A DNA stretch of 63,740 nt, the filler included, from Psammoneis japonica (lineage: Eukaryota): NCBI GenBank assembly GCA_008632985.1. It is 4 parts of 4 records of this genome, joined end to end, with 100 filler letters (N's around TTAATTAATTAA, not from the genome) between each part and the next. Parts side by side here need not be neighbours in the genome. Positions count along the whole stretch, not along the records: positions 1 to 18,380 come from QPGO01000469.1; positions 18,481 to 36,813 come from QPGO01000471.1; positions 36,914 to 55,056 come from QPGO01000470.1; positions 55,157 to 63,740 come from QPGO01000540.1. The stretch is one strand, 5' to 3'. The position numbers were made by a program, and so were the translations under genes. Positions 1 to 63,740 of this stretch are shown here, one piece after another. The first letter of the stretch is position 1. Each line of letters starts with the position of its first letter. The notes beneath the pieces were generated by a model. That model was not told the DNA's origin, made no database searches, and saw only the letters and a program-made list of their open reading frames with translations.

Positions 1-217
1 GTCAAACAAAAGGAATGCTCTCTGACACTGGAGGAGAAAAAGGCAAGAAAAGACAGGAACTGAGCCTGCAGAGAATTTGTTGGGAAACACCACGAAGTTT
101 TTGTGCAACATGTGCGTGCACTCCAATGTCATGTTCAAGAAGACATGGCATCATCGACCATCTTGCCACCAATGTGCAATGCTGGCAGTGCAACAACAAG
201 TCAACGAAGCAAGTTCA

Positions 218-1781
218 ATGAACAACGAAGCAAGAGATGCCATCCGTCTGCCATTGAAAAGTGGGGAGATTTCACGAATTTTTTAGAAGAGAAGTTTGAT
301 GCTGCCAGACCCCTTCCACTGCCGATGACTGCGCCACTGTTTAAAACCGTTGTTGATTGGATGACAATGACGAACAAAATCACGGAGCAATCCTTCGTCA
401 ATCCATTTGTGTTTGTGCACTGTTTTGTCAAGCTGGTCTCATGTGTCTGCCCTTCCAAGTGGATTCTGAAGAACGGGGCCGCTTCCCAACAATTGGACGA
501 CCCGATGAAGCCTGCTGCATGAAACCAACAGGAAATGACCCTGTTTGAGCTCAGAAAACAGCAGTTTTTGAAGCAAAGGCATTGCACAACATGTTGCTTC
601 CGAATGACTTTGACATGTTGAAGCAGTGTCATGAGGAGGCGGTCAAGAAGCAAGCGACAGAAAGGAGAAAGGAGCAGTCCAAGAGCTGGCATCAAATCTG
701 CCACCTGCTTTCCCAGGAATTGGCATGCATGATCAACAATGGTGTTCAACATGGAGCTCTTTTTTGTGCTTCGAAAGTGCACTTCATCCACCTTGATGGA
801 CCAGGCAGAGAAGTTCACAGGGTGGAAATTGCTGATGCGCACATTGCTGGTCAGAAAGACTTTCTTCGTGCTTGGGTGTGTGTGATTTGTCTCGCCGACA
901 AAAGTCCAGCACTGGCCAATGGAAATCATGGCCTTGAAATGTCTCCCTGCACTGGCATCAGATGGCTTAAGGGACCCCAATTTGTGAAGCTGAAGCATCG
1001 GAATCAGTGATTGAATGTCAAGAGCAAACTGGACATCATCCCAATGACAATGGCTCTTCTGTTGGTGATGGAAACAGTGACCACGAACTGTCTGGAGGAA
1101 GCCGAAGTGACAAGAGCAGCAGATCTAGCCCTGCATCCAAGAAACCAAGACACAAATCTCCTGAGCACCGCATGAAGAACGAAGGCAGTCAGTTGACTTT
1201 GATGTCATACACCGCCTCAGTTGGTTCAGTCGAGGTCTGCTGAGGATGAGGAAAGGAGCACAATGTCACTCCCACTCACCCCACCAGACTGCTCCTTCTT
1301 TGATTCGTTTTCTTTCGAAGACCAATTTGTGCATCCAGTCGATTTTTGAACTTTGAGGATCGGCCGGTTGTTGGGGGTCGGAAGGAACGGAGACGTCTTT
1401 GAGAGCGACTGTGGTGAAGAGAAGGTTGCGGTAAAGCAGTTTGATCTGTCAAAGAATTTTGAAAGTTACGAGAATGAGGTCAAGGCGTACGTGCGGCTGA
1501 GAAAGGCATGGGGTGAGCTTGTCCCTACTCCAAAATTCATTGCGCAGTCACCATCTGGCATGGTCAGGTTCCTTGGTCTACAGAAGGGGAGGTGTCCCGA
1601 AGAGGAAGAGTTTGATGGGCACTTTGGCACCGTGATTGACAAGCCACGGAGTGACTATAACTTCCAACCTCTTGATTATTCTCATGGTCGCAACTGCATT
1701 GTTGTAGATGAAGACAATGGAACAAAGAAGTTGCTCGTTATCGATCTAGAATTTTGGAAAGACACTGTGAAGATTGAGTAG
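218..1781 (+). pseudogene. Disrupted Crinkler-like gene: putative restriction-endonuclease-like domain followed by a protein-kinase-like domain
   Basis: 1353..1781 has kinase motifs (LLGVGRNGDVF Gly-loop, VAVK, NCIVV, VIDLE). 582..1010 has ELACMINNGVQHGAL, resembling the CRN REase motif YM..N...YG.L after Y->C/H changes. The frame is broken by stops/frameshifts. Confidence 0.5.
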
Positions 1782-2194
1782 ACTGATTTGGGAGAGTGAA
1801 GCTGATCATCGGAGGTGTGGGCTGTGTGCAAAGCACATGGTACAGTAGCCATACCTTTAGTGCTCTAACTAGCCCAAACATGGTAGCTTAGCTAATCGAT
1901 TAAAACAGAAATCTGGGCGTGTCGTGAAGGAGCAGCCCAACCGCTCTCTCCTTGACTCCAGTTTAACGTTGCGGGTGAGCCTGCCATCTGCTATCACCGC
2001 TCACCGCCCGTCGTGATCATGCGAGAGGGTTCTCTGCAGTTTGCTGAATACTATACTTCACCCTATTGTTTACCACGTGTGATATAATCATGTTCGTATT
2101 GACGAGCTGCTTGGTGGTTTGAACACGTCTAATGCCTTGCATGTGCAACAAGGGACTCTTCCAATAGCTGAAAGAAACCGGGAAGAGTGCTGCG

Positions 2195-3303
2195 CTAAGA
2201 CTTTGCTACAGCGGTACTTGCCACAATCTGCTCAGCCGTTTTGACGTATTTGAGGAATATTTCCTTTGTCTGCTCATAAAGCTCTTCTCGGTATCGTCTG
2301 CTATCGATTCTGACCACGGTTCTTTTGTCGTTGGAACTCCATTCGAAACACCGGTCGAAATCAATATGCCAAAGTTTTCCCGTGCTGTCAACCAATACTT
2401 GAAAGTCCCGCACAAGGCAACTTATATCCTGGATAAGTTCCAGGGTTTTGTTTATCTCGTGCCTAAAGTTACGAAGGAAGGATTCGCTGTCGCTCGACGC
2501 GGCCACAATTTCATCCAAATGCCCCTTTGCGTGTCTGTATTTGTTGGAGGTACAACCGAGGAGCAGCGACGGTTGAGGAGCCATTTTTACTCTATACACG
2601 GCAGCCATTCCTTTGGCATAGTAGCCTTTCTTGATCATTTTCTGTCGGGACTCTCTCATTAAAACTCTGTTCATCTCAGATGCATCATTCTGGCTTAGAT
2701 GTATAGACTGAACTGGACCAAACAGAGTGGATATCGAGTACTCCTTTTCAACCATTCTCGCAAGATCCCAAGCTTTTTCTCCGCTCGCAACAAAAAAGTT
2801 TAGTTGTTCTTGTGTGACCAAATAACCAAAGCGGGGACTTCGCCCTTTTCGCGGAAAAAACATTTCTCCACCCCACAGTTTGCCGGAACAGTTAGATTCA
2901 AGTTCTCCAATGCAAATTTCTTTGGAGAAGAATGATCTGAGTCAGACACGAGTTTGACTCCTTTTCATTTCTTGTGCCGTTTCTTTGTCCTCTTTGTTCG
3001 TATTTGTCAATATCGCCTTTGTACATGTCTACTTGCTCTTGACCTTCTCGATTGTCCTGCTTGTTGCTTCTATGTTTTTCGCGTGTGTCCGACAAAGATT
3101 GCCTTTTTGATGTGGGCGGAAGATCCTTCGTGGCAGAATCTTTCCTGATGGACTTGGATAGCGCTGCATATAGAGACGGTGAGTGTAATGACAGAGGGAG
3201 TTGAATTGATGTTGCTTAGAGACACGAAGGAAACTCGGAGAATCAGTTGAACGGTACTGTATCCAACGATGAACACGACGTAGACTAGTCGACGACTCAG
3301 CAT
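2195..3303 (-). pseudogene. Copy A of membrane-anchored hypothetical protein; frameshifted (real or assembly indels)
   Basis: ORFs 3070..3303, 2898..3095 and 2195..2863 together reproduce the copy C protein. Tyr codons are retained. Confidence 0.75.
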
Positions 3304-3404
3304 TTTGGAGAGGTTTCAATTACAGTCTAGTATACCTCAGCAACAGCGATGATAAATCCATCATCCAGTCTTTTTGGCAATCCTTTCATGGTCGTTGCCG
3401 CGGA

Positions 3405-4350
3405 AAAGCAAAAGGGAAAAGCAGAAAAAAGGTGGGGATTGATTCGACCGTTGGGCGCGCACAAAATTTTGATGACGACGAGCGTTGAAAGAGCGAGCAC
3501 GCAAGAGCAAAAAATGATGGCACGCACGAATTTTGTGCGCCATGAGCACACCAAATGCAATGGGGCAGCAAGTTCCACTTCTTCCTTGCCATTCAACCAC
3601 GTCCATGCCACTGGCAATGGGGAAGCCATCCAAGCCTTCTTCATCTGGTGGGGTCATGGGGAAGCCATCCCAGCCTTCATCTGGTGGGGTCACCCAAACA
3701 CTCCTCTGTGTTTGCCTGGACAAACTCGCGCCCATCTCCTTGTTTTGACCCGTGTCCCTTCTTGTCAGTGATGTCATGCACAACACATCATGGACAAATC
3801 ATCAACACATCTTCTTCTCTCATTTTGCTTGCTGCAGGAGACACTGTGTTTTCCACAGGCAAATGCAGAGAGTGCAGCCAGGTGGGCATGCTTGCCTCTT
3901 GAAAGAAAGAGCTGCAAAATGCTGGCGCTCTTGTTGTTTGCAGTGGAGACAACTCTGGCCTGCATCATTCTTGGTGTGATTCACATTGAGATTGTGTTCT
4001 CTGGCTGGCAATGAGCCATTGTTGCTGAAGAAGTCATTGTGAAAATTGTTGCTGGTCAAAGAGACACACCACCGCAGATGTCTTGAAACACAAGACTTTG
4101 GACCCAGCTTCTGTTTGCTCTCATTCTGAATTTCTTTGACATGTGCCAGCTTCATTGGCTTGCTGCTGTCAAGATGGAAGAAACCTCTTTCTGTCAAGTT
4201 GAGCCTCTCGATGCCTCTCATTTCTTTGACCACTCTCCTTTCAACACCAGCGCAGTTGGGGCAATGTCCCCCTTTTGTTGGGAGCTCCTTCCAACACACC
4301 CCACAAGATGATGGAGAGCACATTTCTTTGCAAGTCATGTCAGCATTGGG
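3405..4350. mobile_element. TpA-depleted unclassified insertion upstream of copy A (second copy ~6090-7040)
   Basis: Homology of copies A/B to copy C ends at gtcgttgccgcgga (~3404). The following ~950 bp is present twice, absent upstream of copy C, and almost TA-free. Confidence 0.55.
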
Positions 4351-4748
4351 TCATCATGCATCAGAGCTGTGTGCTGTGTGCAAAACACATGGTGCAGCAG
4401 CTGCACCTTAAAGGTCCTGACCAGCCCAACCATGGTGGCTTTTAGGCAGTCATTTTTAACAGAAATCGTGGCATGTCATGCTGGAGCAACCGCTCTCTTC
4501 TTGACTCCAGGTTGACATCGAGGGAAAAGCTGCCATGTGCTGTCCCCGCTCACCACCCATTGCATCATGTGAGAGGGGTCTCAGCAGTTTGCCGCACACA
4601 CTGCTTTGCCCCTTTTGATTTAAACCAGTCGACTCAAATGTGGCATGCACAAAGACATGAAAGCACAACATGAAGGCCAACGGGCTGTGAGGAAGCCCAA
4701 AAGCCAAGGGCTTCAATCTGTGTGTGACAGATGAAAAAGGACATCTGT

Positions 4749-5987
4749 TCATTTTGATGAGCCACTTTGTGGGTTGAGCATGTGTGTTGGCTGCCTCAAT
4801 GGCATTTCTGCAGGAGAAGATTTGCGTGTGAAATGAGAGACTCTTCCATTGGCTGAAAGAACCGGGAAGAATGCGGCGCTGAGCTTCACCACAGTGTTGT
4901 TTGCCACAATCTGTCCAGCCATTTTGACATGATTGAGAAATGTTTCCGTTGCCTGCTTGCAATGCTCTTCTCGGTGTTGCCGCTTGTCGATTCTGACAAC
5001 GTTTCTTTTGTCATTGGAACTCCATTCGAAACACCGGTCGAAATCAACATGCCAAAGTTTTCCCATGCTGTCAACCAATGCTTGAAAGTCCCGCACAACA
5101 CAACTTACATCCTGGACAAGTTCCAGGGTTTTGTTTGTCTTGTGCCTAAAGTTACGAAGAAAGGATTCACTGTCGCTCGACGCGGCCACAATTTCATGCA
5201 AATGCCCCTTTGCGTGTTTGCATTTGTTGGAGGTACAATCGAGGAGCAGTGACGGTTGAGGAGCCATTTTTGCTCTGTGCACGGCAGCCATTCCTTTGGC
5301 GCAGCAGCCTTTCTTGATCATTTTCTGTTGGGACTCTCTCATCAAAACTCTGTTCATCTCAGATGCATCACTCTCGCTTGGATTTGTAGACTGAACTGGA
5401 CCAAATGGAGTGGACATCGAGTGCTCCTTTTCAACCATTCTCGCAAGATCCCAAGCTTTTTCTCCACTCGCAACAAAAAAGTTTAGTTGTTCTTGTGTGA
5501 CCAAATGACCAAAGCGGGGACTTCCGCCCTTTTCGTGGAAAAAACACTTCTCCACCCCACAGCTTGCCGGAACTGTCAGATTCAAGTTCTCCAATGCAAA
5601 TTTCTTTGGAGAAGAATTGTCCGAGTCGGACATGAGTTTGACGTCCTTTTCATTTCTTGTGCCTTCATTTTGTCTTTTTTGTTCATGTTTTTCAATGTCG
5701 CCTCTGTGCATGTCTATTTGCTCTTGACCTCCTTGATTGTCCTGCGTGTTGCTTCCATGTTTTTTGCGTGTGTCTGACAAAGATTGCCTTTTTGATGCGG
5801 GCGGAAGATCTTTCGTGGCAGGATCTTCCCTGATGGACTTGGACAGTGTTGCATGTAGAGACGGTGAGTGCAATGACAGAGGAGTTGAGTTGATGTTGCT
5901 CAGAGACACAAAGGAAACTTGGAGAATCAGTTGAATGGTGCTGCATCCAACGATGAACACGACATGGACCAGTCGACGACTCAGCAT
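4749..5987 (-). pseudogene. Copy B of the same gene: open frame but hypermutated (no Tyr, original stop lost)
   Basis: 412-aa ORF colinear with copy C. All Tyr are replaced by His/Cys. The end GCT TAG appears as CTC AGC (1-bp deletion plus TA->CA). Confidence 0.8.
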
Positions 5988-7566
5988 TTTGGAGAGGTTT
6001 CAATTACAGTCTAGCACACCTCAGCACAACAACAACGACAAATCCATCATCCAGTCTTTTTGGCAATCCTTTCATGGCCGTTGCCACGGAAAAGCAAAAG
6101 GGAAAAAAGGTGGGGATTTGACCATTGGGCACGCACAAAATTTAAAATTTTGATGAGCTTGGAGACGAGCGTTGAATGAGCACGCAAGCAAGCAAAAAAT
6201 GATGACACGCACGAATTGTGCGCTGTGAGCACACCAAATGCAATGGGGCAGCAAGTTCCACTTCCTTGCCATTCAACCATGTCCATGCCACTGGCAATGG
6301 GGAAGCCATCCAAGCCTTCTTCATCTGGCGGGGTCGTGGGGAAGCCATCCAAGCCTTCATCTGGTGAGGTCATGCAAACACTCCTCTGTGCTTGCCTGAA
6401 CAAACTCGCGTTCATCTCCTTGTTTTGAGCCATGCCCCTTCTTGTCAGTGATGTTGTGCACAACACATCATGGACAAATCTTCAACACATCTTCTTCTCC
6501 CATTTTGCTTGCTGCAGGAGACAGGCCACTGTGTTTTCCACAGGCAAATGCAGAGTGCAGCCAGGTGTGGGCATGCTTGCCTCTTGAAAAGAAGAGCTTC
6601 AAAATGCTGGTGCTCTTGTTGTTTGCAGTGGAGACAACTCTGGCCTGCATCATTCTTGGTGTGACTCACATTGAGAACATGTTCTCTTGCTCTCAATGAG
6701 CCATTGTTGCTGAAGAAGCTGTTGTGAAAATTGTTGCTGGTCAAAGACACACCACCGTGGATGTCTTAAAACACGAGACTTTGGACCCATCTTCTGTTTG
6801 CTCTCATTCTGAATTTCTTTGACACATGCCAGCTTCATTGGCTTGCTGCTGTCAAGATGGAAGAAACCTCTCTCTGTCAAGTTGAGCCTCTCAATTTCTC
6901 TCATTTTTTTGACCACTCTCCTTTCAACAGCAGCACAGTTGGGGCAATGTCTCCCTTTTGTTGGGAGCTCCTTCCAACACACACACACCACACAAGATGA
7001 TGGAGAGCACATTTTTTTGCAAGTTGTGTCAGCATTGGGTCATCATGCATCAGAGCTGTGAGCTGTGTGCAAAACACATGGCACAGCAGCCACACCTTAA
7101 ATGCCTTGACTGGCGCAACCATGGTGACTTTTGGGCAGTTGTTTTTAACAGAAATCGTGGCATGTCGTGCTGGAGCAACCACTCTCTTTTTAACTCCAGG
7201 TTGATGTTGAGGGTGAGCCTGCCACATGCTGTCCCTGCTCTCCACCCATTGCATCATGCAAGAGGGTTCTCTGCAGTTTGCCACACACACTGCTTCACCC
7301 CTTTTGTTTTGAACCAGTCGACTCAAAAGTGGAACACAGAAAGACATGAAAGCACATTATGAAGGTTAACCAGCTGTGAGGAAGCCCAAAAGCCAAGGGC
7401 TTCAAACTGTGTGTGACAAAGGACAAAGGACATCTGTTCATTTTGATGAGCTGCTTTGTGGTTGAGCGCGTGTAATGGCTGCCTCAATGGCATTTCTATA
7501 GGAGAAGATTTGCATGTGCAATGAGAGACTCTTCCATTGGCTGAAAGAACCAGGAAGAATACGGCA

Positions 7567-8676
7567 CTAAGCTTTCACCACAGTGTTGTTTGCCACAATC
7601 TGTTCAGCCATTTTGACATAATTCAGAAATGTTTCCTTTGCCTGCTCGTAACGCTCTTCTCGGTAACGCCGCTTGTCGATTCGGACAACGTTTCTTTCGT
7701 CGTTGGAACTCCATTCGAAACACCGGTCAAAATCAATATGCCAAAGTTTTCCCGTGCTGTCAACCAATACTTGAAAGTCCCGCACAAGGCAACTTATATC
7801 CTGGATAAGTTCCAGGGTTTTGTTTATCTCATGCCTAAAGTTACGAAGAAAGGATTCGCTGTTGCTTGATGCAGCGACAATTTCATGCAAATGCCCCTTT
7901 GCGTGTTCGTATTTGTTGGGGGTACAACCGAGGAGCAGCGACGGTTGAGGAGCCATTTTTACTCTAAACACGGCAGCCATTCCTTTGGCATAGTAGCCGT
8001 CCTTGATCATTTCCTGTCGGGACTCTCTCATTAGAACTTTGTTCATCTCGGATGCATCATTCTGGCTTAGATGTATAGACTGAACTGGACCAAACAAAGT
8101 GGATAACGAGTACTCCTTTTCAACCATTCTCGCAAGATCCCAAGCTTTTTCTCCGCTCGCGACAAAAAAGTTGAGTTGTTCTTGTGTGACCAAGTAGCCA
8201 AAGCGGGGATTTTCTCCCTTTTCGCGGAAAAAACATTTCTCCACCCCACAGCTTGCCGGAACAGTTAGATTCAAGTTCTTCAAAGAAAAGCTGGTTGGAG
8301 AAGAATGATCTGAGTCAGACACGAGTTTGAAGTCCTTTTCTTTTTGTGTGCCGTTTCTTTGTCCTCTTTGTTCGTATTTGTCAATATCGCCTTTGTACAT
8401 GTCTACTTGCTCTTGATCTTCTCGATTGTCTCGCTTGTTGCTTCTATGGTTTTCGCCGGTGACTGACAAAGATTGTTTCTTTGATGAGGGTGCAAGGTCC
8501 TTCGTGGCAGGGTCCTCTCTGATGGACTTGGGTAGCGTCAAAGATATAGACGGTGAGTGCAATGACAGAGGAGTTGAATTGATGTTGCTTAGAGACACGA
8601 AGGGAACTCGGAGAAGCAGTTGAACGGTGCCGTATCCAACGATGACAATGACGTAGACTAGCCGACGACTCAGCAT
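7567..8676 (-). CDS. Copy C, intact 369-aa hypothetical type-II membrane protein with a possible atypical kinase-like C-terminal domain
   Basis: Starts MLSRRLVYVIVIVGY (N-terminal hydrophobic anchor, start shared with copies A/B). Low-complexity stem, then CGVEKCFF and DFQVLVDSTGKLWHIDFDRC motifs. Confidence 0.75.
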   Translation of the reverse strand: MLSRRLVYVIVIVGYGTVQLLLRVPFVSLSNINSTPLSLHSPSISLTLPKSIREDPATKDLAPSSKKQSLSVTGENHRSNKRDNREDQEQVDMYKGDIDKYEQRGQRNGTQKEKDFKLVSDSDHSSPTSFSLKNLNLTVPASCGVEKCFFREKGENPRFGYLVTQEQLNFFVASGEKAWDLARMVEKEYSLSTLFGPVQSIHLSQNDASEMNKVLMRESRQEMIKDGYYAKGMAAVFRVKMAPQPSLLLGCTPNKYEHAKGHLHEIVAASSNSESFLRNFRHEINKTLELIQDISCLVRDFQVLVDSTGKLWHIDFDRCFEWSSNDERNVVRIDKRRYREERYEQAKETFLNYVKMAEQIVANNTVVKA

Positions 8677-8757
8677 TTTATTTCCTGTCACAGTTGAGCA
8701 ACAACGATGATAAATCCATCCTCCAGTCTCTTGGTAATCTTCAAGGTCGTTGTAGCG

Positions 8758-8784
8758 GATGATGATGATGATGATGATGATGAT
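8758..8784 (+). repeat. (GAT)n microsatellite, ~9 units
   Basis: gatgatgatgatgatgatgatgatgat, seen directly. Confidence 0.95.
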
Positions 8785-8959
8785 ACAGTGTTCCACCGCG
8801 AAGATTGTCAAATAAATCGTCAAGACATACATGCAGTCATTGTGACTCGCCGTTTCAATGACTTCAGAAACGTCACTGAGGTGACCTGCTGTAGGGCCCT
8901 AGAAGAAGAGTCGTTGAGAGTCTCCTCGCGCCTCACAATCTCAATTAGTTGCTGTAACA

Positions 8960-11555: not shown

Positions 11556-11769
11556 AATGGTGTCATTTGACAGATGTTGACAGTGTCAATGATCTCTCAC
11601 CATGTTTGATCTGCACTTGCTGTGCTGTCAGTGTGTGCCATTGTCATTTTGTGGTGGGGCCAAATGGCATCATTTGACAGATGTTGACAGTGTCAATGAT
11701 CTCTCACCATGTTTGATCTGCACTTGCTGTGCTGTCAGTGTGTGCCATTGTCATTTTGTGGTGGGGCCC
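11556..11769. repeat. 107-bp tandem duplication of the integrase 3' end
   Basis: Near-identical units starting aatgg at 11556 and 11663. Confidence 0.92.
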
Positions 11770-18380: not shown

Positions 18381-18480
18381 NNNNNNNNNNNNNNNNNNNN
18401 NNNNNNNNNNNNNNNNNNNNNNNNTTAATTAATTAANNNNNNNNNNNNNNNNNNNNNNNNNNNNNNNNNNNNNNNNNNNN
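18381..18480. other. Assembly gap with artificial six-frame stop linker TTAATTAATTAA (18425-18436)
   Basis: Identical linker inside N-runs at three places in the window. Confidence 0.97.
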
Positions 18481-23485: not shown

Positions 23486-23519
23486 CGCTTGGGTGCAATC
23501 TTCTCATTTCTAATCACCA

Positions 23520-30200: not shown

Positions 30201-30309
30201 CCATGACATAGACGCACTTGAACACACATAACGCTGTTTTGTTTTTCCAAGACTTGACACTTACACCAACACTTCCTTGACTAACACACCTCTCATACGT
30301 GTGTCTTGC

Positions 30310-36913: not shown

Positions 36914-36915
36914 CA

Positions 36916-48412: not shown

Positions 48413-48802
48413 GACGCGTTCCAGGTCTAGGTGGGACCTCGTACTACTGAACTGTGACATCGATAGTTTTTTGAATCACGTCGTATGTCGCGCACGTAGA
48501 TTTCTACGTGATTTTTTCGATATTTTGTGTCATTTTACGGTACACTTATTGAGCGATCCGTCCAACAACTTTTGACATTTTTTGTTACAGCGCGATTCTA
48601 TAATGTCTTAAGAATCGCGTAGGGCAGGCGCATTTGCAAAAACGTCGAGTGGCAAGAGGCATAATTGTGCCACAAACTTGGCAGTTTATTTGATGTTGAA
48701 GATAAATATATCCATTAATTAAATTCTCGTACTACGGAGCTCGCACGTAGAATTCTACGGGCCCAATGTCACACGGAGTCCCACCTAGGACTGGAACCCA
48801 TC
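48413..48802. mobile_element. MITE copy 1 (390 bp), TpA intact; ~25-bp TIRs; 4-bp TSD CAGC
   Basis: cagc|gacgcgttccaggtctaggtgggac ... gtcccacctaggactggaacccatc|cagc. Confidence 0.9.
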
Positions 48803-48806
48803 CAGC

Positions 48807-51800: not shown

Positions 51801-53100
51801 AGATTCACACCCATGGCGCTGATGGCCAGCATGCAAAGGGTTTGTTGTGGCTTTGCTGCGCTCATCCAAAAGATTGTTGTGGAAGAGAACAGGGTGCTTC
51901 TCTTGCGTGACTTAAATCAAGACATTTGTGAGCACCATTTCGCTCACACATGAGCTTCTCATGGTTGGCACAACAATCTCCCATCTAATCTGGTGCGGTC
52001 TTTTCTGATTTTGCGTCTGCAGCCAAATGAGTTTGTGCAATGTCTGACCGTGCCAATGTGTCAAAAAGTGCTGGGGAGCACTTCAATTGAGTTGTCAACA
52101 CAAGTGCAGTTCTGGTTGTGCTGCACTGCATTGTTTGCTCCTGCACACGTTCATCGTTCGGACAATTTTTGACATGAAAAATTAAGCTGTCCATCCACAA
52201 TGGCAATGCTGCTCTCTCCTTGCAACAACAAATTTAGTTCTGTTTTAGCTGTTGCTGTCGCTTTCTCATGGACAAATGATTTTGACCACATCCCCCCACC
52301 CTTTGAGTCTGTGGCACCATGGCAGAACAAAGTCATCCAACCCCAGCAACAGCAATGCCACTCTCTCTTCAGTGGTGAGTCTGGGTGGAAAGCAGCACTC
52401 AAAATGACCATGCACTTGAATGCTGTTGTTGATGACTGCTTCAATCTTCGAGAGCAATCGAGCTTTGTGCTGAAGCACTTGAGCAGAGCTAAAGTTTGTC
52501 GTTTCTGGGGCACACACCAAGGTGACAAACTCACAGCATTCATTGCTGGGATGTTGCAATGCTCCTTTCACATGATCTCTTTCCTCGACAAGGTGCAAAT
52601 CGTGTGCTGCCTCGTCCTCCGCTGCTTCGCTGCTGACAGCATTGTGGCCAATTGATGAGCTTGTGCCACGCGTCCGATTCAAATTTCTGAGTTGCAGTTT
52701 TTGACAACTCACAGGCATGCACCTCCATCTTTGACAACCCCCAACCTGCAACACAAGCTGCAAAACTGGCATCCTTTTCTTCTTCTTGGATTTTCGAGAT
52801 GGCGTCCTTTGTCAGACAATCTGCCGCTGGGATTTCATTGGTTTCCCACACAGCTTCTTTTCCCCCACACCCCTTGCAGTTTTTGATGAAAGTCACAAAT
52901 CATTACATCACTGGCTAGCCCAGGTGCCATCCCAGAGAAGCATTGGACACAGTTCAAAAAGTGTCCACGTCGCTCCATCCACATGAAGTGCTGCATGCCC
53001 AGGATTTTCCTGTGTCAATCTTGGAAGAAGAAGGAGTGCTCCCTTCAAGGCACAATGCCAGAGCATTGTTGAACTCGGTGATTTCATAAATTGCACGGTC
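48807..53100 (+). mobile_element. Degenerate P-element/THAP9-like transposase region
   Basis: VAIAFDSMTMQKGMILD (cf. L.FDEM.I...L.YD) in 50572..50913; LRDLNQDICEHHFAH (cf. SQD.LE.FF) in 51633..51953; TA-depleted and fragmented. Confidence 0.6.
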
Positions 53101-55055: not shown

Positions 55056-55156
55056 CNNNNNNNNNNNNNNNNNNNNNNNNNNNNNNNNNNNNNNNNNNNN
55101 TTAATTAATTAANNNNNNNNNNNNNNNNNNNNNNNNNNNNNNNNNNNNNNNNNNNN
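55056..55156. other. Assembly gap with TTAATTAATTAA linker (55101-55112)
   Basis: N-run with linker. Confidence 0.97.
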
Positions 55157-55484
55157 GCAGCTGTGGCTGTGCGTGACAACATGTGCATGAGCCACAACCT
55201 GACCAAGGTTGCACAAAGCTGGTTTGCTTTTCTCTGCATGGCTTTTTGACTTTGCTCATCCCCTCCTCACAAAAGCAAGCCTTTGTTTGCTTGCCCTGCT
55301 GCTTCTGCTGCTGCCCACCTTGTCCCAGTGCATGCTGGAGGTCATTTCTGTCCACCTCAGATGCTGTGACTTCCACTCTTTTCATCTTTTTGTTGCTGTT
55401 GCTGCTCTGGCTGCTTGCTGCTCTGACATGCAGAGCTGCTTTCTGCTGCTGGCACTGTTCCTTTTTGTTGGTCTTGGCAAAGCA

Positions 55485-55875
55485 GACGTGTTCCAGGTCC
55501 AGGTGGGACCTCGCACTGCTGAACTGTGACATCAACAGTTTTTTGAATCACGTCGCATGTCACGCACGTAGATTTCTGCGTGATTTTTTCGACATTTTGT
55601 GTCATTTTACGGCGCACTTGTTGAGCGATCCGTCCAAAAACTTTTGACATTTTTTGTTGCAGCGCGATTCTACAATGTCTTAAGAATCTCTGCAAGGAAG
55701 GCGCACTTGCAAAAACGTCGAGTGGCAAGAGGCATGATTGCACCACAAACTTGGCTGTTTGTTTGATGTTGAAGACAAACACATCTGTTGGATGAATTCT
55801 TGCACTGCGGAGCTCGCACGTGGAATTCTGCGGGCCCAATGTCACACTGAGTCCCACCTGGGGCTGGAACGCGTT
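55485..55875. mobile_element. MITE copy 2 (391 bp), TpA-eroded; TSD AGCA/GGCA
   Basis: Colinear with 48413-48802; agca|gacgtgttccaggtccaggtgggac ... gtcccacctggggctggaacgcgtt|ggca. Confidence 0.9.
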
Positions 55876-56463
55876 GGCACCTCTCTGTGAAGCAGCATCG
55901 TGTTGGGAGCTCCCCACCAAAGCTGCAAGCCAAAGCTGCAAAGACAATTTTTAACACCAAAGAGAGGTCATGCTGGAGGACATGCTTTTCCATTCATTTG
56001 ACACAAGCAGCACACGGCAGCAGAGAGAGAGAGAGCAACATTTTCAGCTCAAGCTCGTCCGACCATGCTTTTTGGGCAAGCTTGGAGATTTTGCAACGAG
56101 CGCTGGTGCAGCTCTTGTTGTGAGGCAGCTCTCAAAACAAACTGGGTGACGTGTCAAAGTGGTGCTGAAAACACTCTTTGTGGGGTGCTGCTTGGTCATT
56201 GACAACATGCGGGGCTTTTCGCTGGCCAGCTGCGGTCAACAACGAGCTCTTGCTCTCTGGGTTGTGCTGCAGAGCATCTCAACTGCTTGCTTTTGGTGCC
56301 AAAAAAGTCTTGCCCACCACTCTCCCTTTTGGCACCTTGTCAATCCCTTCCACCTGCGCTTGTTCAAGCTGCAGCACACAGGCACAGCTCTCTGTGAGAG
56401 AGCTGGCACTGGCACACCCTCTGGCTTCTTTTTCGTTGGCGCCTCTTGCATCCACCAGCACTG

Positions 56464-59400
56464 GACGCGTTCCAGCTCTAGGTGGGACCTCGCACTACTG
56501 AACTGTGACATAATTATTTTTTATCATCCGTCGTATGTTTCGCACGTACATTTCTACGTGTTCTGTTATAAAAAATTGTTCCACACTGCCTGTTTTGCGA
56601 AGCCAAAGGCTTTCTGTTATCTACATTTATGTCAATAAAAATGCGCTGGGTATATTCTTTAATGTCTGAAGAACATACCCGGGCATACTGTAAAGAATGT
56701 ACTTCAAGTGTGGAGGAGGAGATACGTTCGCAAAATTGCCTCTTTTTCTGTTGGCTATCATTCATATATCCATTGCTTAATAATTTTAGTACGGAGCTCG
56801 CACGTAGAATTCTACGGGCCCAACTACAGGAGGAATAAACAGGCGTCAGACGCCAGTTTCCTAGCGTTTTTCTGGTAATATAGTTATGTAGGAATTGTGT
56901 ACATTTTCAACGAAGAGATGAGGTTGGATTGAAAAATGCGACAGCAGACGCACAAAAACGCGACACAACGCGACAAGCGACAATGGAGCTGCAATGGCAT
57001 GCACCCAGATGAACGAGTGCCAGTGGATGCACTGCTGCACAACACTCAAGTGCTGTGCTTTTACTCCTGTTGCTGTGTGCCACTTGCCTTGATTTGGGCT
57101 GTTCGCTGCAACCAGCGCAACAGCTCTTCTTGATTGCGGAAACAAGAGATCCGTCCGATCTGTTTGTCGCTCCGCTCTGATTGGTGCTTTTCCTTTCGCC
57201 CGTGGTGGTTGGCATTTTGCAAGGCAACACAACAATTTTAAATTCAAACTGTGCCATGTCAGGATCATTGTAAAATTCAAACAATGCACAAGACCAAAAA
57301 CAGTTCTCGCAACCGCTGCAAAATGATGCACTTTTCATTCATCAGATGCAGACTGACACATTTTTGGGAAAGCAATCATGCGTGAGACTAACAACAACGC
57401 AACAGTTGATGCCATTTCATTGTTGAATGCAGCCAAGAGCACATGTCATGCCAGCGAGCTTGTCAAGGAGGCAAAGGCTTTCGCGAAGGAGGAGTTTGCG
57501 TCAACAGCAGCTGCTCGCAAGTTGTGTTCTGTTTTGAGCGTCGTCTCGGAAGCGCTGTCCGCAGTTTCCACCAAAGTTAAATCTTGCGCCACTGTTTGCG
57601 CCCCCGTCGCAAGCAATCCATCTTGTGCCATGAAGAGGTTGAGAGCTGCCGCACCAACAGCTGCGAATGTCAAGGATGACTCCTCCCAAGCCCTCACAAA
57701 TTTGAAACAGCTGATTGCGGATTCGAAAGGGACGAGAGAAGCAACAGAATCAATGCCACGACGCTCCAGCAAGAGGAAGGCTGCAAGCATTGGCGCTGAA
57801 GACACTGACGACATCAAAGTGATTCCAGACCTCCCCCCACCCCCAACAGAAGGGAAGATGTGCCCCACCTCGACGGCGTGCCAACTGTTCAGTGAGTGCA
57901 AGCACAAGAAAAGGAAGGGAGAGCTCTTTGCACACTGGTTGCGAAGCGGGTGTGTTCCAAAAATGTCAAGGCAGAACTGGCACAAGATTGTGAAGACGCA
58001 TTCTGAAGGCAAGAATGCAAGGGAATGGGATGACAACGGCAGCAGGAAAACTGGACGAAGGCCTCTTGCGGAAGTGGCCGAGGTCATTGACTTTGTCGAC
58101 CGATTCAGACAAGGTGCTGCAATGGGAAACAAAGAGATTCAGGACATGCTTGTGAGGATGCAAGCTGACAGAGACTCAAAAGAAGGCTGCTGTGATCTCG
58201 GAATTTTGAAAGCGACCTCCAAGACGATCAACAACTGCAAAACACTGGCAGCTTGCGTCATCCCGACCACCCTGATGGAGCGAGCTGTGGTCAAGTCGGA
58301 GGTCCGCGAGGTTGCTGAAAAATCCCTTTGAAGCACAGCTGCTTTCTTGATGGTTGCCGCTGCCACCATGTTCGAAATTGGCAAGCTCCAGACTGGTCGC
58401 TCACCAGTTTCCAAGGCCACTCGAGGGGCGCAAACCTTCGAACGTCTTGCATCTCAATGCTGCGGTGGCCCACCAGTTCGCCCCTTGCACTCTTGTGACA
58501 CTCATTCCACCGACAACAGCGGCGTCTGTTTTGTTTCGGAGGTGACAGAGCAGGGGTGCAGCTGGAGAATCGACAAACAGGATGGTGAGGATGCAAGCAT
58601 TAGATCAAAGTGTGAGCAGCGCAGCAAAAGCTCTCTAATTGGACAACGAGTCCAATTCACCTAGACTGCAACAGCAGAAGGCACCATGGCATCTCCATGT
58701 GTCTCCATTCTCGGACTGAACGATCAAGAATCACCCAAGGAGACCTGCCCAAGCGGTGTGTTAGTTGTTTCGCTGAAAGGGACAGCCATTGGAGGGTCCG
58801 ACCCAAGCAACACTTCAGTTGGTCGAGTTGTGTTTGTCCGCAAGGGAGAAGGCACCGAGACAACGAACTTTAAAAATTACCGTGACACCGTCTGCCGTCC
58901 ACATGTTGAGTCAAAGCGTGATTTGTCGGAGGGAATGCCAACACCGGAAGATGAAAATGCTGCAGGGTGGCAAGATGGCGGCGGTCCTCAGCTGAAGGCT
59001 ATCACAGCTGAAGAGTCGATGGAGAAGGATGAGGAAATCAACCTCACAGCAAACAAGCACTCTGCAAGCAGAAGCGCGACTGAACAGTGCGCTGACCTCA
59101 TGAGGATTTTTGCTCTCATACACGCGGAATGCAAGAAACTCACCGCCAAAAAGCCACCCATGATCGGTCACAAGAAACATGTTCATCGTGTCTTCCATGA
59201 ATTACAGACATCCGGCCGAATCAATCTGTCCAAGGACAAGCTCAATTCCATGATGGATCTGATCATCTGTGCGTTGGAAATCCAAACCAAGTCTGTTGCT
59301 CCCACTCGTGTTCGTGATGGCTTCATTGCCGCTGGGGCAATCGACTCAGAAACGCTCGAATGGCCAGACTTCAACATGATGCTTGCAACGCTTCGGCGCA

Positions 59401-61247
59401 AGATCACAGAGCAAGAAGTTGAGTTAATCCAGAAGTCTTTTAATGTGATGATGGATGCACAATTGATGTTTGGCAAGGCACCTGAGACGCTCTTTGATGA
59501 ACTCGGGTTTCCCGAGGACGAGGCTGCTGACAGCTCAAAGTGACCGAGACGTTCCGAGTCAGACGCACACTCCCGCGCCATGTGTCTGTCAGCGGACAAA
59601 GTGCGAAAGGCAAGAGTTGAGAAGATGCTTCTAGAGGCAAGGAAGAAGCAAGTCCGTCTTGAGCAAGAGAATGCTGCCATCAGCAAGCTCCTGGCTCTCA
59701 ACAAAGAAGTTGAAGACAAGCTGCCAGCAGACCGATCGACAGCAACGCACCAGTTTCTCTTTCAAAATTTTAAAGCTCCCCAGCTGGGAGCCTTCGTCCA
59801 TGCACGTCTGTTTGTCACGGGCAAGAAACCAAGGAATGCTGAATGGAATGGCATGAAATTCAAGAATGTGAACAAAGGCACACCGGCAATGGCGGAGATG
59901 GGAGAGGACAATCTGTTGACACGTGCCAAGTTGCTGCTCAATGATCCTGTTACATTGAGGGAAAAGGAACCAGAGAGCACAGAAGATGAACAGAGCAACA
60001 TCAACTCCACTCCATCTGTCGTTGATGCTGCTCACACAAATGAATCAGGAGCCCTGGATGCACCACCAAAAGGTGACGACCTTTTAGGCGATGATCGCTG
60101 GATGTCCTCGGTCAAAGAAGAGATCCAGGGTGCGACGTTTCCATCAGGAACAATCGACCCCGCTCTCCCTGGTCATGTTGACAGCCTTGTGTCACATCTG
60201 TGCCTTCGCCTTGACCGTCACCTAAAGACAAGATTCCCAGACCCTGCGCATTGGCATCACTGGTCGTTCCGTTGGGCAAGGCGGAACTCCAGCAGAGTGG
60301 CGGCGATGGCTGCACTCGGAGGGCACGTGAAGAACGATTTGGCCTCAAAGCAACTCTCTGATTCTCTTTTGAATGTGAACATTTCTCGTTTTATGGAAAT
60401 TGACGAGACTTCTTGCATTGCAGGCTCTTGTCTGTTTTATGATGAAGAGAACGGGCGGTTCGTGAGATCGGGCAAGGCAACCTGTCAAACAATGTGGGAG
60501 CGGCATTTGGAACACAGAGCCAAATCCATGAAGGAAGAAAAGGGCTTGCATGAAGCTCACCCTGACAAAGGCAACAAATGTGTCAAACACAAAATTCGAA
60601 AAGGCTTTTTCGAGCAGCTGAAACTTGTGGCGGCCTTGGGTTTCCTCGACTTGAACACGTCTGCGCTTGAAGACACGTCTGGTGATGGCATTTTTGACTG
60701 GGACGACAGCACTCTTGACAACATGAAATCATGGAAAGCCACAGGGACAATGAAGGAAAAAAAGCTTTCAATGGTTGGGTTCTCATTTGAACTTGCACAT
60801 GACTTGATGATCGCGCCGTCGGACAACGTTTCGGAAAACCCTGGATTCGAGCCATGCCACGGTTACATTGGGCAAGATTGAAGGGCGGGGAGAGCAACTC
60901 AAGTAAAAAGCAAAGAATGCTGTAGTTGTTTCATTTAAAATGGCACCCATCATGGCTGTGGCATGGGTCCATCACTTGTGTTGGGCGTGTTGACAGAGTG
61001 CAAGCGCATTTTACATTGTGCGAGTTGGGTGCATTCTCTCTGCGACGCTGCTGTTTTTGTGCGTGTGTTGGTTGGAGCTCATCAGCTCTGGTGCAAAATG
61101 TGCGTAGCTGGCTACAGGGGAATGAGTGTCTTCTGTCGCATTTTCTCCAGATCGAGCGCTTCATCTGACAACTGTTTTTTCCTGACGCGCATTTTTTCCG
61201 CGCGCAGCCAATGACACAAAAAGTCCCACCCAGGGCTGGAACCCGTC
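56464..61247 (+). mobile_element. Full-length 4.78-kb TIR DNA transposon, parent family of the MITEs; 4-bp TSD ACTG
   Basis: actg|gacgcgttccagctctaggtgggac ... gtcccacccagggctggaacccgtc|actg. The left ~360 bp is homologous to the MITE. Confidence 0.9.
57378..60881 (+). pseudogene. ~1167-codon transposase-like frame with three in-frame stops (pogo/DDE_1-like core, GIY-YIG-like C-terminus)
   Basis: ORFs 57378..58331, 58347..58664, 58686..59543 and 59580..60881 are in one frame. Motifs GRRPL, STDNS, WQDGGGPQ, SRSATEQCADLMRIF. Confidence 0.7.
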
Positions 61248-62456
61248 ACTGTGTGGCTGCATGCACTGCTTCTGCACCAAATTCTTGTGCCTTTGCATCA
61301 CACTTTGCTTCAAATTTTTCCTTTTCCTTGAGTGCTGCAGCTGCATTTGGTGATGGTGCTTGTGAAAAATCATTTGTTCTCACCCCACTTTAAAATCCGG
61401 GTTACTTTTGCCTGTTGACTCTCGCTTCGCTCGAGTCGAGTTAATCAAAACCCTCTGCCCACACCAGGTAAAAAAATGCCTGAATTTCTTGCGCAATCGG
61501 CCATTTCAAAGATTGACTGATTTGTCGACTTTTGTGGGACTCTTGAGTTAGTTACATACTAGCATTAAAATATTAGAGTCAAAGTTTGATGGATGTGGAG
61601 TTATCTAGTCTTTTGAAACGCAGAATTAGAGATAACAATGAAATGTTGACAACATTTCATAGCTCAAAATGACTAGTTCTATCTTAGAATAAAATAAAAT
61701 GGCTACTACACTTAGATATCACTAATGTTATTGTTCTACTTTACAATAATGAAACTATCACACTTGTATCTGAGCTTCTTTATCCTCACACACCCTCAAA
61801 ACCGAACACAGAACGATTCTCTTGTCGGCACCAAAATCTGGTGTTGTCGCGCGACCCAAAAGTGTCGTCCATAACGACTCAAAGTGCAGACGATACATTA
61901 TAAGAATCACAGTAACGTATCATAAAAACGCATATTGTTGTTCGTATTGAGCATCAAGTCAATAGAGCGGAGAGTTGCGGAGACTCCTGCGTCGCAATTT
62001 GAGAAAGAGAAAAAGAGGCATCAAAAATGTCATTAGTCAAAAGGCTATCCATAAGGCACAACAAACAGCAAAAATCAAAATTTCAACCACATCATCGTAT
62101 AAATCGTAGTCTTATTGACCTGTCTCGATATTTTTACCTTCTCAATCATGACAGCCGTCGGTGTAAGAATGGACGAGTTCATGGCGGTGACATGGTGCCA
62201 TTTTCGGTGTGGCGATTGTGTTCCGAGACCAGGGAGTCGCCTCAAATCTGTTGAAACTCGAATAATTGATATCTTTCTCGTTAATCAATACATATATTAA
62301 AATGACAATATGTATCATATACGTGTTCTTAATTTTCATAGATTTTAATTAGGCTAATGCTCAACACTTATACACAGATAACATATTCTGATTCTGTTTA
62401 TCCGTAATCCAGATTATTAATTAAAAAGAGTCATTTTCGCCAAAAATTGGCGATAG

Positions 62457-62550
62457 TTTCAACAAAAAACTGTTGAAACTTTGAAGTTTCAACAAAAAAA
62501 CTGTTGAAACTTTGAAACTTTGAGGAGTTTCACAGTCGTTGTTGAAACTA
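62457..62550. repeat. Short tandem/inverted repeat gtttcaacaaaaaactgttgaaactttgaa (2 copies plus partials)
   Basis: Seen directly; each unit contains inverted gtttcaac/gttgaaac. Confidence 0.75.
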
Positions 62551-62759
62551 TCTGACGTCACCAGGATGTCATCCCCATAATGTCTGAAACTTAATGACGT
62601 CACCGTCAATTCAGACGAATTGCTTGACGGGAGGTAGAAAATGCCGAAAACGCTGTCGCAATTTGAATTGGCACCACAAGCACCACTAAAGCTCGGCATG
62701 TTGGGACCTGCAGTAGAAGCTAACAGTAAAAATGAGACTAAACTCTGAAACTGCTAAAT

Positions 62760-63740
62760 TGATGACTGTCAACTGAGCCATTTTCAATCCGCTCTTGGCG
62801 GCGGTGGCGAGACAATCATCGCTCCAGTTGTTGTGACCACCCTTCACTGCCGTGTTGCCCGATTTCAGAGCAACCCTAAACACAACAGTGTCAGTGATCC
62901 TTTCATGCGTTTTGCCATGATGCACAAACGGTTTGCCCTCAACTGCAATCCAATGTGGCTTGAGAGAGCCATCCTCTTTCGAGTGGCAGCGGTTCGTGAG
63001 CTTGACGTGTGCTGGGAAGCGCAAGATGAACTGCCTGGTTCCACGACCAGCTTTGTCTTTGTCCTGAAGCTTGGTTGTCTGCTTTTCATGAGGCATTCCC
63101 ATCTGGTCGCATGCATTGCACCACACCTTTGCTCGCTGGTGAAAGAGTCCACACTCGTTGTGACAGAAATTGAAGGCAAATGGCAAGAATTCAAACAACA
63201 ACTCCTTGCTGCTGTCTAAATGGCAGATGAGTCTCTGCTCAGAGACCGTTGCAGGAGCCGAAAGACGTGCAAGTTGGCACAATCGGGCTGCTGTTGTCAT
63301 TCTTGTGAGCCGTGTGGCTCGAAAGCAAACTGCATCGTGCGCGCACGCGCGGAACTAAAGAGCACACAAAACTGTGCGCGGCAAACTGAACAGTGCGCGA
63401 CATCTCGCACGCACCTAATCCCATTCAAATCCTGTCACTCCCCAGTTTGCTTGAGGAGTCACAGAAACAGATTCAACTTCGGATGGATTGGATGCCTCCG
63501 GAGCAAAGTTCCAAAACATGAGAGGACGGAGAAGGTTCCAGATTTGGGAGCAACCCCAATGCTTGCTGAGAATGTCAGCAGGGTTGCGGGAGCCTTCGAT
63601 GAAGTGGAACTCAAGGTCACCAGAGGCAATTGCCTTGTGCACATGATGGAACAAGAGAGTGGTGTGTCGCTCATGTAACTTGGAGTGCGGGATGGTCGCA
63701 CTGTCCACAACCGACTTGTTGTCACCGAGCGTGCAACTGA
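62760..63740 (-). mobile_element. 3' part of a copia-like retrotransposon: RNase H end (~63480-63740) plus a downstream TA-depleted unknown ORF remnant
   Basis: LGDNKSVVDSATIPHSKLH.RH...FHHV..AIASG...FIEGSRNPADILSKHWG.SQIWNLLRPLMFW is a copia RNase H terminus. Confidence 0.8.

Follow-up and report, generated by a model that had tools for sequence, protein, structure and literature searches.

In a 63,740-nt stretch of the genome of the diatom Psammoneis japonica (assembly GCA_008632985.1; the whole stretch is called the window here), the dinucleotide TA has been nearly eliminated from discrete blocks that include mobile elements, a miniature inverted-repeat transposable element (MITE) and one copy of a tandemly repeated gene, where it has been converted to TG or CA, while it persists at ordinary frequency in host genes. 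Comparisons between hypermutated sequences and their unmutated relatives, both in the window and in a family of gypsy retroelements from environmental metagenomes, establish this signature together with its direction, its context rule and its symmetry between strands, and they reveal changes that accrued in place, independently in each copy and to very different extents from one copy to another. We consider it likely that these patterns record a mutation process that acts on diatom DNA and converts A:T to G:C at TA steps within silent mobile copies or domains. That the process serves as a genome defence, and that it is homologous to one recently measured in the chlorarachniophyte Bigelowiella natans, is what we infer from the comparisons set out at the end of this text.

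TA-Depleted Blocks and the Fate of the Missing Dinucleotides

The window is composed of four contig pieces (18,380, 18,333, 18,143 and 8,584 nt), arranged in order of size and separated by 100-nt synthetic joiners at 18381-18480, 36814-36913 and 55057-55156, each a six-frame stop linker of the form N44-TTAATTAATTAA-N44, and adjacency across these joiners carries no genomic meaning. Over its entire length the observed/expected (o/e) ratios are 0.30 for TA, 0.62 for CG, 1.48 for TG and 1.51 for CA. Segmentation with a two-state hidden Markov model (HMM) on TA positions, with the synthetic linkers masked for totals, assigns 38,050 nt to depleted blocks that hold 180 TA (o/e 0.07), with CG at 0.40, TG at 1.65, CA at 1.73, GC at 1.25 and AT at 0.80; the other 25,387 nt contain 1087 TA (o/e 0.60), with CG at 0.96 and TG/CA at 1.19. 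Had the depleted blocks the same o/e as the normal segments, they would contain about 1541 TA (Poisson P = 0 at machine precision), and the deficit is largely recovered as the proposed products: 1361 TA and 1224 CG are missing, 2585 in all, against a TG plus CA excess of 2386, a ratio of 0.92. TA depletion is uniform from block to block (o/e 0.03-0.11), whereas that of CpG is variable (0.10-0.72).

The block edges are sharp, with TA o/e of 0.03-0.11 inside versus 0.46-0.67 in the normal segments, and they adjoin host genes, as where one block ends at 30208 and the reading frame of a 5-oxoprolinase starts at 30232. A preliminary description made from the sequence alone had reported TpA to be nearly absent from repeat blocks and normal in host genes, and this is borne out, the HMM edges falling within about 250 nt of the coordinates given there except for a block listed from 48000, which begins at 48787. 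CpG decay, which the same description had treated as background only, turns out to have depleted CpG in the same blocks too.

Direction of Change in a Triplicated Gene and a MITE Family

The direction of change can be read from a tandem array with a unit of about 2.69 kb (period about 2685 nt) that comprises three gene copies, all on the minus strand, and two full spacers. Copies A (2100-3500) and C (7472-8898, with a 443-aa open reading frame (ORF) at 7567-8898) have normal TA and belong to a family without a Pfam match, while copy B (4752-5999) is hypermutated and forms, with spacers 1 and 2 on either side of it, a TA-depleted domain at 3354-7357 (19 TA, o/e 0.07; CG o/e 0.42). A and C share TA at 38 dinucleotides; of these, 7 are still TA in copy B, 15 are TG, 16 are CA and none is anything else, all 31 changes being single transitions. 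It keeps 26 of the 46 ancestral CG common to A and C, with TG or CA at 19 of the 20 that were lost, and it retains other dinucleotides at 0.81-0.97, with the exception of AT (0.71), which overlaps TA. The three pairs of copies are 87.9, 85.3 and 83.4% identical; B is nearer to A than C is, and the B-specific changes are therefore properly polarised. At the protein level copy B contains no tyrosine (Tyr), against 17 in copy C, and every Tyr common to A and C is His or Cys in B. Copy C further carries a run of nine Ile codons, seen as GAT repeats on the plus strand near 8740-8778.

An unmutated partial copy of the inter-gene spacer upstream of copy A (spacer 0, 1807-2071) provides an outgroup for spacers 1 and 2, which have TG or CA where spacer 0 has TA at 12 and 9 sites, respectively, with the reverse at 1 and 0. 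The two full spacers oppose TG to CA at 18 dinucleotides, yet in the part covered by the outgroup they have the same outcome at 11 of 13 sites, a combination which argues that mutations occurred both before and after the spacer was duplicated. The duplication history of the triplication is not a simple one, some hypermutation outcomes being common to both spacers.

The MITE family gives the same answer. Copy 1 (MITE1, 48413-48797, plus strand), which has terminal inverted repeats (TIRs) and normal TA, sits on the margin of a depleted block, and copy 2 (MITE2, 55485-55870), which is hypermutated, lies within the depleted block 55157-56478; relative to MITE1, MITE2 shows 12 changes of TA to TG, 11 of TA to CA and none in reverse. 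Copy 3 (MITE3, 56464-56900, plus strand; TA o/e 1.03) sits between two depleted blocks and has the 5' TIR and the subterminal repeats together with a different 3' end. The earlier proposal that TA is ancestral and was converted to TG or CA is thus upheld by copy B, by MITE2, by the spacers when set against spacer 0 and by the replacement of Tyr by His or Cys; the opposite possibility, that TA is the derived state, was checked with the paralogues and finds 0 reverse changes in 23 for the MITE pair and 1 in 22 for the spacers against spacer 0.

A Second Case in an Environmental Gypsy Family

A second, independent case, with INTERMEDIATES, is provided by five metagenome relatives of the reverse transcriptase (RT) of the window's gypsy element, in which Tyr is replaced by His or Cys at the same positions in a graded manner. 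An alignment of these five proteins retrieved 479 relatives in metagenome contigs, from which 80 loci were kept; by their contig record names they come from at least two separate metagenome assemblies. One copy adjoins a gene for a MINDY-3/4 deubiquitinase; the closest named sequences to this gene come from raphid pennate diatoms, first Seminavis robusta (61%) and after it Amphora and Fistulifera. No nucleotide match was found between the environmental loci and the window, a hint that the family's species is not that of the window.

TA o/e varies continuously among the environmental loci, from 0.89 to 0.10, and TG/CA and G+C rise as TA falls. When the loci were piled up on locus L033 and compared with the family majority base at its 276 TA sites, TA retention ranged from 0.94 down to 0.07 among copies at 3-7% background divergence; at L007, for example, 8% of 136 TA sites were kept, 60 had become TG, 57 CA and 8 something else, with 0.75 of CG kept. 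Three loci whose pile-up values nearly duplicated those of another locus (L018, L024, L039) were dropped from the spectrum, hazards, position, correlation and strand analyses. The models were fitted to 55 copies, after exclusion of any whose background divergence reached 0.08 or whose comparable sites numbered below 800, and the hazards and strand models skipped sites whose flanking bases deviate from the majority base; correlations were computed over the 74 copies with at least 40 TA sites and over the 55 of these below 0.08 divergence.

Some flanks outside the gypsy sequence are also TA-poor (L041:1-2253, o/e 0.08; L010:1-4018, o/e 0.33), and the flank at L010 contains a 1106-aa ORF with no Pfam match and adjoins a nearly unmutated gypsy copy (0.91 of its TA kept). 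By eye in the pile-up strings, mutations in some moderately mutated copies (L033, L035, L053) look more crowded close to the element ends than centrally; the long terminal repeats or spread from the flanks may be the reason.

Mutation Spectrum, Context Rule and Strand Symmetry

Across 13 hypermutated environmental copies, A>G reaches 49.7% in TAC, 48.3% in TAT, 20.2% in TAG and 15.8% in TAA, against 2-10% in all other contexts; T>C is its mirror image, and the same cells lie at 3-11% in 17 non-hypermutated copies. The consensus-based spectrum thereby bears out the A:T to G:C excess at TpA that had been claimed from the window, with A>G at 16-50% after T versus 2-10% otherwise. The 2053 TA sites in the hypermutated copies resolve into 611 kept, 694 TG, 657 CA, 6 CG and 85 other, so that TG and CA account for 1351 of the 1442 changed sites (93.7%). 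A single change suffices to remove the site, because the second A is then no longer preceded by T.

A competing-hazards model of 6985 site observations in the 55 copies assigns relative rates of 1.0, 0.98, 0.24 and 0.24 to C, T, A and G at position +1, and a smaller effect to position -2 (A 1.0, G 0.90, T 0.55, C 0.48), with negative log-likelihoods of 5023 for the null model, 4955 for -2 only, 4582 for +1 only and 4491 for the full model; between positions -5 and +5 no other position has much effect. In the window, retention by NTAN class extends from 0.008 (ATAT, ATAC) to 0.82 (TTAA), and a model with +1 only fits the ten classes with an R2 of 0.96 (rates of 2.7 for T, 1.7 for C, 0.8 for G and 0.2 for A). 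A pyrimidine stands at +1 in 34 of the 48 strand-resolved window changes with a known neighbour, and position -2 is flat. Read on the strand that carries the mutated A, the motif is 5'-T-A-Y-3'; the equivalent motif for the mutated T, read on its own strand, is R-T-A.

Both strands are affected alike. Relative to the coding strand of the element, the ratio of top to bottom rates is 1.05 (delta lnL 0.5), with no transcription-linked bias, and the outcomes counted are 817 TG versus 740 CA. By runs tests the order of TG and CA is random in four of five series (z values including 0.55, -0.2 and -0.56), and the fifth, spacer 1 (14 events, z 2.23), alternates more than expected by chance, the opposite of clustering. 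Nor do copies share outcomes beyond expectation: concordance between hypermutated copies is 0.60 (3185/5279 over 100 pairs), as is expected under independence with the context model. Strand symmetry and random interleaving together argue against RNA editing, deamination of complementary DNA (cDNA) and transcription-coupled or strand-coordinated bursts, and they agree with the action at the level of DNA, on both strands, that had been put forward for the window (ratio 1.05, TG and CA interleaved). Strand-coordinated bursts were also considered as a candidate in their own right and were ruled out, the runs tests showing no clustering of TG or CA.

CpG loss follows a different course. C>T at CpG affects 8-18% of sites in the hypermutated copies and 9-23% in the non-hypermutated ones, and among copies the fractions of TA and CG kept are uncorrelated (rho -0.02); CpG decay is a separate process, uncoupled from the loss of TA.

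Probable Targeting of Individual Copies and Domains

In the window, gene copies A and C as well as MITE1 and MITE3 remain unmutated within about 1-3 kb of mutated copies, and both MITEs are located at or inside depleted blocks. The presence of unmutated copies beside mutated ones, combined with retention that runs from 94% to 7% at equal divergence, points to targeting by copy or domain and not by homology alone. The suggestion in the preliminary description that the process is repeat-directed, in the sense in which fungal repeat-induced point mutation (RIP) is triggered, is not supported: A, C, MITE1 and MITE3 are themselves repeats, and they stand unmutated near mutated copies; some environmental copies, too, retain most of their TA at the same divergence as depleted ones.

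Consequences for Coding Capacity

The effect on proteins is illustrated by a degenerate Ty3/gypsy element on the minus strand that reaches from 8969 to the end of piece 1 at 18380 (41 TA, o/e 0.06; CG o/e 0.10) and in which Pfam recognises an RNase H at 12859-13254 and an RT at 13396-14007, both on the minus strand. The RT has lost all seven Tyr that are conserved in its 30 best relatives, four of them to His. Among 120 RT relatives the median Tyr content is 4.2% and one is free of Tyr, a figure that carries little information on how widespread the process is. The element also contains, at 11556-11768, a 106-nt unit in two tandem copies that are 98% identical. Throughout the window, ORFs in depleted blocks have 0-1.1% Tyr, and five of six ORFs in host segments have 1.5-3.8%; the sixth (0.7%) overlaps the weakly TA-poor stretch 18481-19407.

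Conversion of TA to TG or CA creates no stop codon and removes TAA and TAG, and the codons lost with TA are all those for Tyr as well as ATA, TTA, CTA and GTA. Per kb and strand, the blocks contain 2.5 TAA, 1.2 TAG and 24.9 TGA, versus 9.5, 8.6 and 20.0 outside; stop-free runs of at least 100 codons number 3.8 per kb in the blocks versus 2.4 outside, and 175 of the 250 stop-free frames of at least 90 codons lie in the depleted 60% of the window. Since no stops are created, element inactivation must come from mass missense changes, to which the loss of TA-containing signals would add. Pfam recognises only element fragments in the depleted blocks. Gene finders are likely to call Tyr-free pseudo-proteins there, and gene sets probably contain such ORFs; with their Pfam signal lost and long spurious ORFs in its place, hypermutated elements have probably also left the repeat content of diatoms under-annotated.

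Read Support

Of the words sampled from 26500-32700, 88% are present in contigs assembled from reads of the public run X1, at a word depth of about 50-60. These contigs span 23196-29525 as three pieces that deviate from the window by 7 letters and 1 gap. The concern that TA might be retained in the reads and lost in assembly is thereby met with read-derived contigs that reproduce the TA-free sequence. In genes, X1 and the window disagree at about 0.5% of positions (32 differences listed in 6.6 kb), which indicates that X1 is not a copy of the assembly. Two of the listed differences fall inside a depleted block (25434 and 27715), where the window has TG and X1 has CG; they are segregating CpG/TpG polymorphisms, neither of them at TpA, and are consistent with CpG decay that is ongoing there. 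Contigs from a further run, X2, do not cover 24162-29958, which we do not take as evidence on expression. One X2 contig joins 21646 to 21720 and skips 73 nt with GT..AG ends, which is a spliced form of the gene at this place (on the minus or plus strand) present in that run.

Proposed Process and Alternative Explanations

We propose a mutation process on chromosomal DNA that would convert A:T to G:C specifically at 5'-TA-3' within individual silent mobile-element copies or domains, and that would equally mutate any sequence trapped in such a domain. Each TA would be changed once, on either strand, to TG or CA, following a T-A-pyrimidine motif on the strand of the mutated A by which TAT and TAC would change about four times faster than TAA and TAG. 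The changes would build up site by site, independently in each copy, until TA is almost gone, with transcribed host genes being spared, and the outcome would be the loss of all Tyr codons, of ATA, TTA, CTA and GTA and of TATA-type signals, with no new stops. CpG decay in the same DNA is separate; we take it as deamination of 5-methylcytosine (5mC), the methylation itself being presumed, because diatom transposons are CpG-methylated, via DNMT5a in Phaeodactylum, according to sections of PMC9998398.

As to the chemistry, enzymatic deamination of adenine to hypoxanthine in DNA is our leading candidate, and we give it an even chance. To our knowledge the TadA/ADAT2 fold is the only enzyme fold known to deaminate adenine in polynucleotides, and its natural members act on tRNA. 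No candidate mutator enzyme is encoded in the window.

The alternative that comes nearest to accounting for the same data, and that we nevertheless hold to be unlikely, places the lesion on thymine: a TET/JBP-type dioxygenase would generate 5-hydroxymethyluracil (5hmU) or 5-formyluracil at R-T-A in silent chromatin, and the product would mispair with G and yield T>C. A>G is T>C on the other strand, the data are perfectly symmetric and the motif reads R-T-A just as well. In dinoflagellates 5hmU is found preferentially at TpA and TpC, although a literature search for this precedent returned no paper, and T>C mutation is promoted by 5-formyluracil. Set against this, 5hmU pairs normally with A, mispairing should give some transversions, yet 93.7% of the changed TA sites are single transitions, and we know of no thymine dioxygenase or modified thymine in diatoms.

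More doubtful still is biased repair or error-prone synthesis in heterochromatin, in the form either of a non-canonical mismatch repair triggered by 5mC deamination and served by a polymerase-eta-like enzyme, or of a T:G glycosylase that over-corrects to G:C. In its favour, the blocks of the window that have lost TA have also lost CpG, the errors of polymerase eta include A>G at WA motifs, and the depletion of CTAG in Escherichia coli is attributed to very-short-patch repair. It is opposed by the uncoupling of TA loss from CpG loss (rho -0.02, with equal CpG C>T in both groups of copies) and by the sparing of the other WA motif, AA, where A>G at A-A-N stands at 3.8-5.0% versus 2.5-4.4% in controls; moreover, transversions are few (1.8% versus 1.3% of sites), and for replication errors to drive 92-99% of sites to a single outcome, mismatches would have to be supplied in implausible numbers.

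A-to-I editing of RNA by ADAR-like or ADAT enzymes, fixed by reverse transcription, or deamination of cDNA in the course of retrotransposition would suit the retroelement origin of most of the affected DNA, as well as the preference of the ADAR and ADAT families for U before the edited A that is noted in the main text of the B. natans preprint (bioRxiv 10.64898/2026.01.13.699255). We regard this explanation as very improbable: strand symmetry (ratio 1.05; TG 817 versus CA 740) contradicts it, MITE2, which is a non-autonomous DNA transposon, and the tandem gene copy and its spacers are affected as well, and copies were mutated independently after insertion (0.60 concordance; 18 spacer discordances). 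Least credible of all is that there is no host mutation process and that the pattern reflects TA-poor origin or selection (horizontal origin, avoidance of TA nucleases or TA insertion) or a sequencing or assembly artefact, for although most genomes are short of TA (even the host segments here stand at 0.60) and the window derives from a fragmented assembly with linker-joined pieces, this is contradicted by the direction seen among paralogues and the graded intermediates within one family, by the destruction of coding capacity, by the matching X1 contigs and by the recurrence of the signature in contigs of, by record name, at least two metagenome assemblies.

Several points weigh against our own proposal of a targeted TA-specific mutation process. 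Everything is read from fixed differences, with no enzyme, modified base or de novo mutation observed, and sequence alone does not separate A from its paired T as the chemical target. Natural eukaryotic ADAT2/3 substrates mostly have a purine at +1, after A34, unlike the T-A-Y rule. The ranking at +1 also differs between the two data sets, being T > C > G >> A in the window and C = T >> A = G in the environmental family, and in the near-saturated window newly created TA and the assumed host-like starting composition both influence the estimate. Environmental copies with more background divergence have lost more TA (rho -0.55), so that age explains part of the variation from copy to copy and facultative targeting is not proven. 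Errors in the majority base and subfamily structure add noise, as in the apparent A>G of about 10% at CAY, and shared ancestry of the copies means that the site observations are not fully independent and that the likelihood differences are overstated. The putative placement of this family in diatoms rests on one flanking gene. Finally, X1 may be the assembly's own sample, in which case it excludes polishing and consensus errors and not sample-level effects.

Other Features of the Window

A TA-depleted block opens piece 1 (1-1431; 5 TA, o/e 0.05; CG o/e 0.51). Piece 2 begins with the weakly TA-poor stretch at 18481-19407 (9 TA, o/e 0.21; GC content 0.54), an ambiguous case that may be GC-rich coding sequence instead of a depleted block, and contains a depleted block between two host genes (23422-30208; 14 TA, o/e 0.03; CG o/e 0.28). 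Within that block are a weak gypsy RNase H match (27666-28328) and a degenerate fragment of a PEP-utilising enzyme (23632-24087, minus strand), recognised by Pfam and similar to solved structures, though too weakly for Tyr replacements to be scored. The neighbouring host 5-oxoprolinase gene (30232-34346, plus strand; Pfam) served as a control of normal composition, and its closest named relatives, at 80-82% identity, are in Bacillariaceae, Amphora and Cyclotella/Stephanocyclus, in keeping with a diatom host. Directly upstream of this gene, 29432-30485 is a very high-copy short element with a 59-nt match to the MITE family at 29496-29554: the summed word depth in run X1 is about 16,475 at 29432-29958 and 3,125 at 29959-30485, against about 50 in neighbouring genes.

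A block with a Crypton-like ORF occupies 36914-41306 (30 TA, o/e 0.11; CG o/e 0.62), the NDC10_II domain of that ORF being recognised by Pfam at 37786-38571 on the minus strand. Further depleted blocks lie at 48787-53086 (22 TA, o/e 0.07; CG o/e 0.36), at 56901-61390, which holds three long consecutive ORFs (57357-60878, plus strand) with 0-0.4% Tyr, and at 62756-63739, up to the window end (5 TA, o/e 0.09). Between the last two, an AT-rich island at 61391-62755 (GC content 0.38, TA o/e 0.67) could be a younger insertion or unique DNA that escaped. The contig ends all fall within or adjoin repeat blocks.

Pfam searches with 140 ORFs of about 90 aa or more and with 84 others gave no match in 1-1431, 48787-53086, 56901-61390 or 62756-63739, and an Atlas search with a 445-aa ORF gave no usable match. 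As for the classes of element named in the preliminary description, gypsy, a Crypton-like element, a MITE and a duplicated gene are indeed affected, while its copia and P-like labels could not be verified by Pfam or Atlas search.

Comparison with Known Systems and Significance

A long-known parallel is fungal RIP, which likewise produces localised transition hypermutation in a dinucleotide context, disables mobile DNA and leaves compositional blocks. RIP, however, is C>T at CpA and creates TpA and stops, whereas the changes described here are A>G at TpA and remove TpA, TAA and TAG; RIP is triggered by duplication and mutates the repeated copies, whereas here unmutated copies stand beside mutated ones. 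RIP is also premeiotic and dependent on RID/DIM-2-type methyltransferases, and it is strand-coordinated within an event, in contrast to the randomly interleaved outcomes seen here. Parts of PMC9998398 report RID-related DNMT4 genes in many diatoms. Decay of 5mC at CpG takes place in the same blocks (CG o/e 0.10-0.72; 19 of the 20 CG lost from copy B became TG or CA) and feeds the same pool of TG and CA, but TA lies outside its reach, and statistically the two losses are uncoupled. The distinction from both RIP and 5mC decay drawn in the preliminary description therefore stands, the spectrum being opposite to that of RIP and CpG loss being uncoupled (rho -0.02).

In animals, ADAR enzymes, which edit A to I in RNA, and APOBEC3 enzymes, which edit C to U in cDNA, also hypermutate mobile elements through base deamination with a neighbour preference, but with RNA or a single cDNA strand as substrate their footprint is confined to one strand and to retro-copies, whereas the footprint here is symmetric and extends to DNA elements and host sequence. 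An engineered TadA-derived editor variant prefers Y-A-C on DNA, as stated in a section of a review (PMC13109818), which renders the T-A-Y rule plausible for that fold. A second source that had seemed to support a Y-A-C context (PMC10953296) was dropped, 'YAC' in the passage concerned being a yeast artificial chromosome.

The preliminary description had known of no published account of such a signature, a statement that has since been overtaken: full-text literature searches turned up no description of the pattern in diatoms, and the signature only in a preprint on B. natans (Mettrop et al. 2026, bioRxiv 10.64898/2026.01.13.699255), which shows the same one. According to its main text, 231 of 302 mutations in mutation-accumulation lines fell in two integrated viral regions, and 230 of these 231 were A>G or T>C, all at TpA, at a rate of about 6e-7 per site per generation (range about 1e-7 to 1e-6) and in only some lines, and an ADAT2 homologue is proposed as the mutator.

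Should the process prove to be genome-wide, diatoms, which are among the most abundant eukaryotic phytoplankton, would join the one rhizarian alga in which such a defence was first measured, in 2026, and would carry it to near completion on transposons; next to RIP, mutational genome defence would then have a second widespread form. The rules obtained here (T-A-Y, one change per site, both strands, independence from CpG, copy by copy in place) translate into a concrete enzyme assay and narrow the candidates, and genome engineering, too, could take an interest in an adenine mutator that occurs naturally, works on DNA and has a defined three-base motif. A tentative and, in our view, rather less than probable extension is that diatoms and chlorarachniophytes share an enzyme-driven T-A-pyrimidine DNA adenine-deamination defence that is recruited to individual silent or foreign copies independently of CpG methylation, erases Tyr codons and TATA-type signals while creating no stops, is ancient in the stramenopile-alveolate-rhizarian (SAR) assemblage and matches fungal RIP as a second system of opposite chemistry.

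As far as the main text of the preprint goes, the two systems agree in near-exclusive A>G or T>C at TpA, giving TpG or CpA by strand; in the limitation to discrete foreign or silent regions of an otherwise normal genome; in a footprint of TpA depletion with CpA and TpG gain, found there in clusters enriched for reverse-transcriptase and DDE domains; and in heterogeneity, among lines there and among copies here, with an adenine deaminase proposed in both. They differ in host, a chlorarachniophyte (Rhizaria) there and diatoms (Stramenopila) here; in target, a single-copy giant-virus insert and virophage in that account as opposed to transposons, a MITE and a trapped gene copy; in extent, with moderate depletion (rho TpA 0.45 in the viral insert, as given there) against near saturation here (0.03-0.11); and in the rate, measured directly there and inferred here. 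The words trinucleotide, context, flanking, CpG and diatom do not occur in that main text, and judged on it, the T-A-Y rule, the strand symmetry, the independence from CpG and the independence of each copy are additions to the B. natans case. The diatom case is thus the first found by our literature searches, a member of a very recently described kind that lies near saturation and adds quantitative rules to it.

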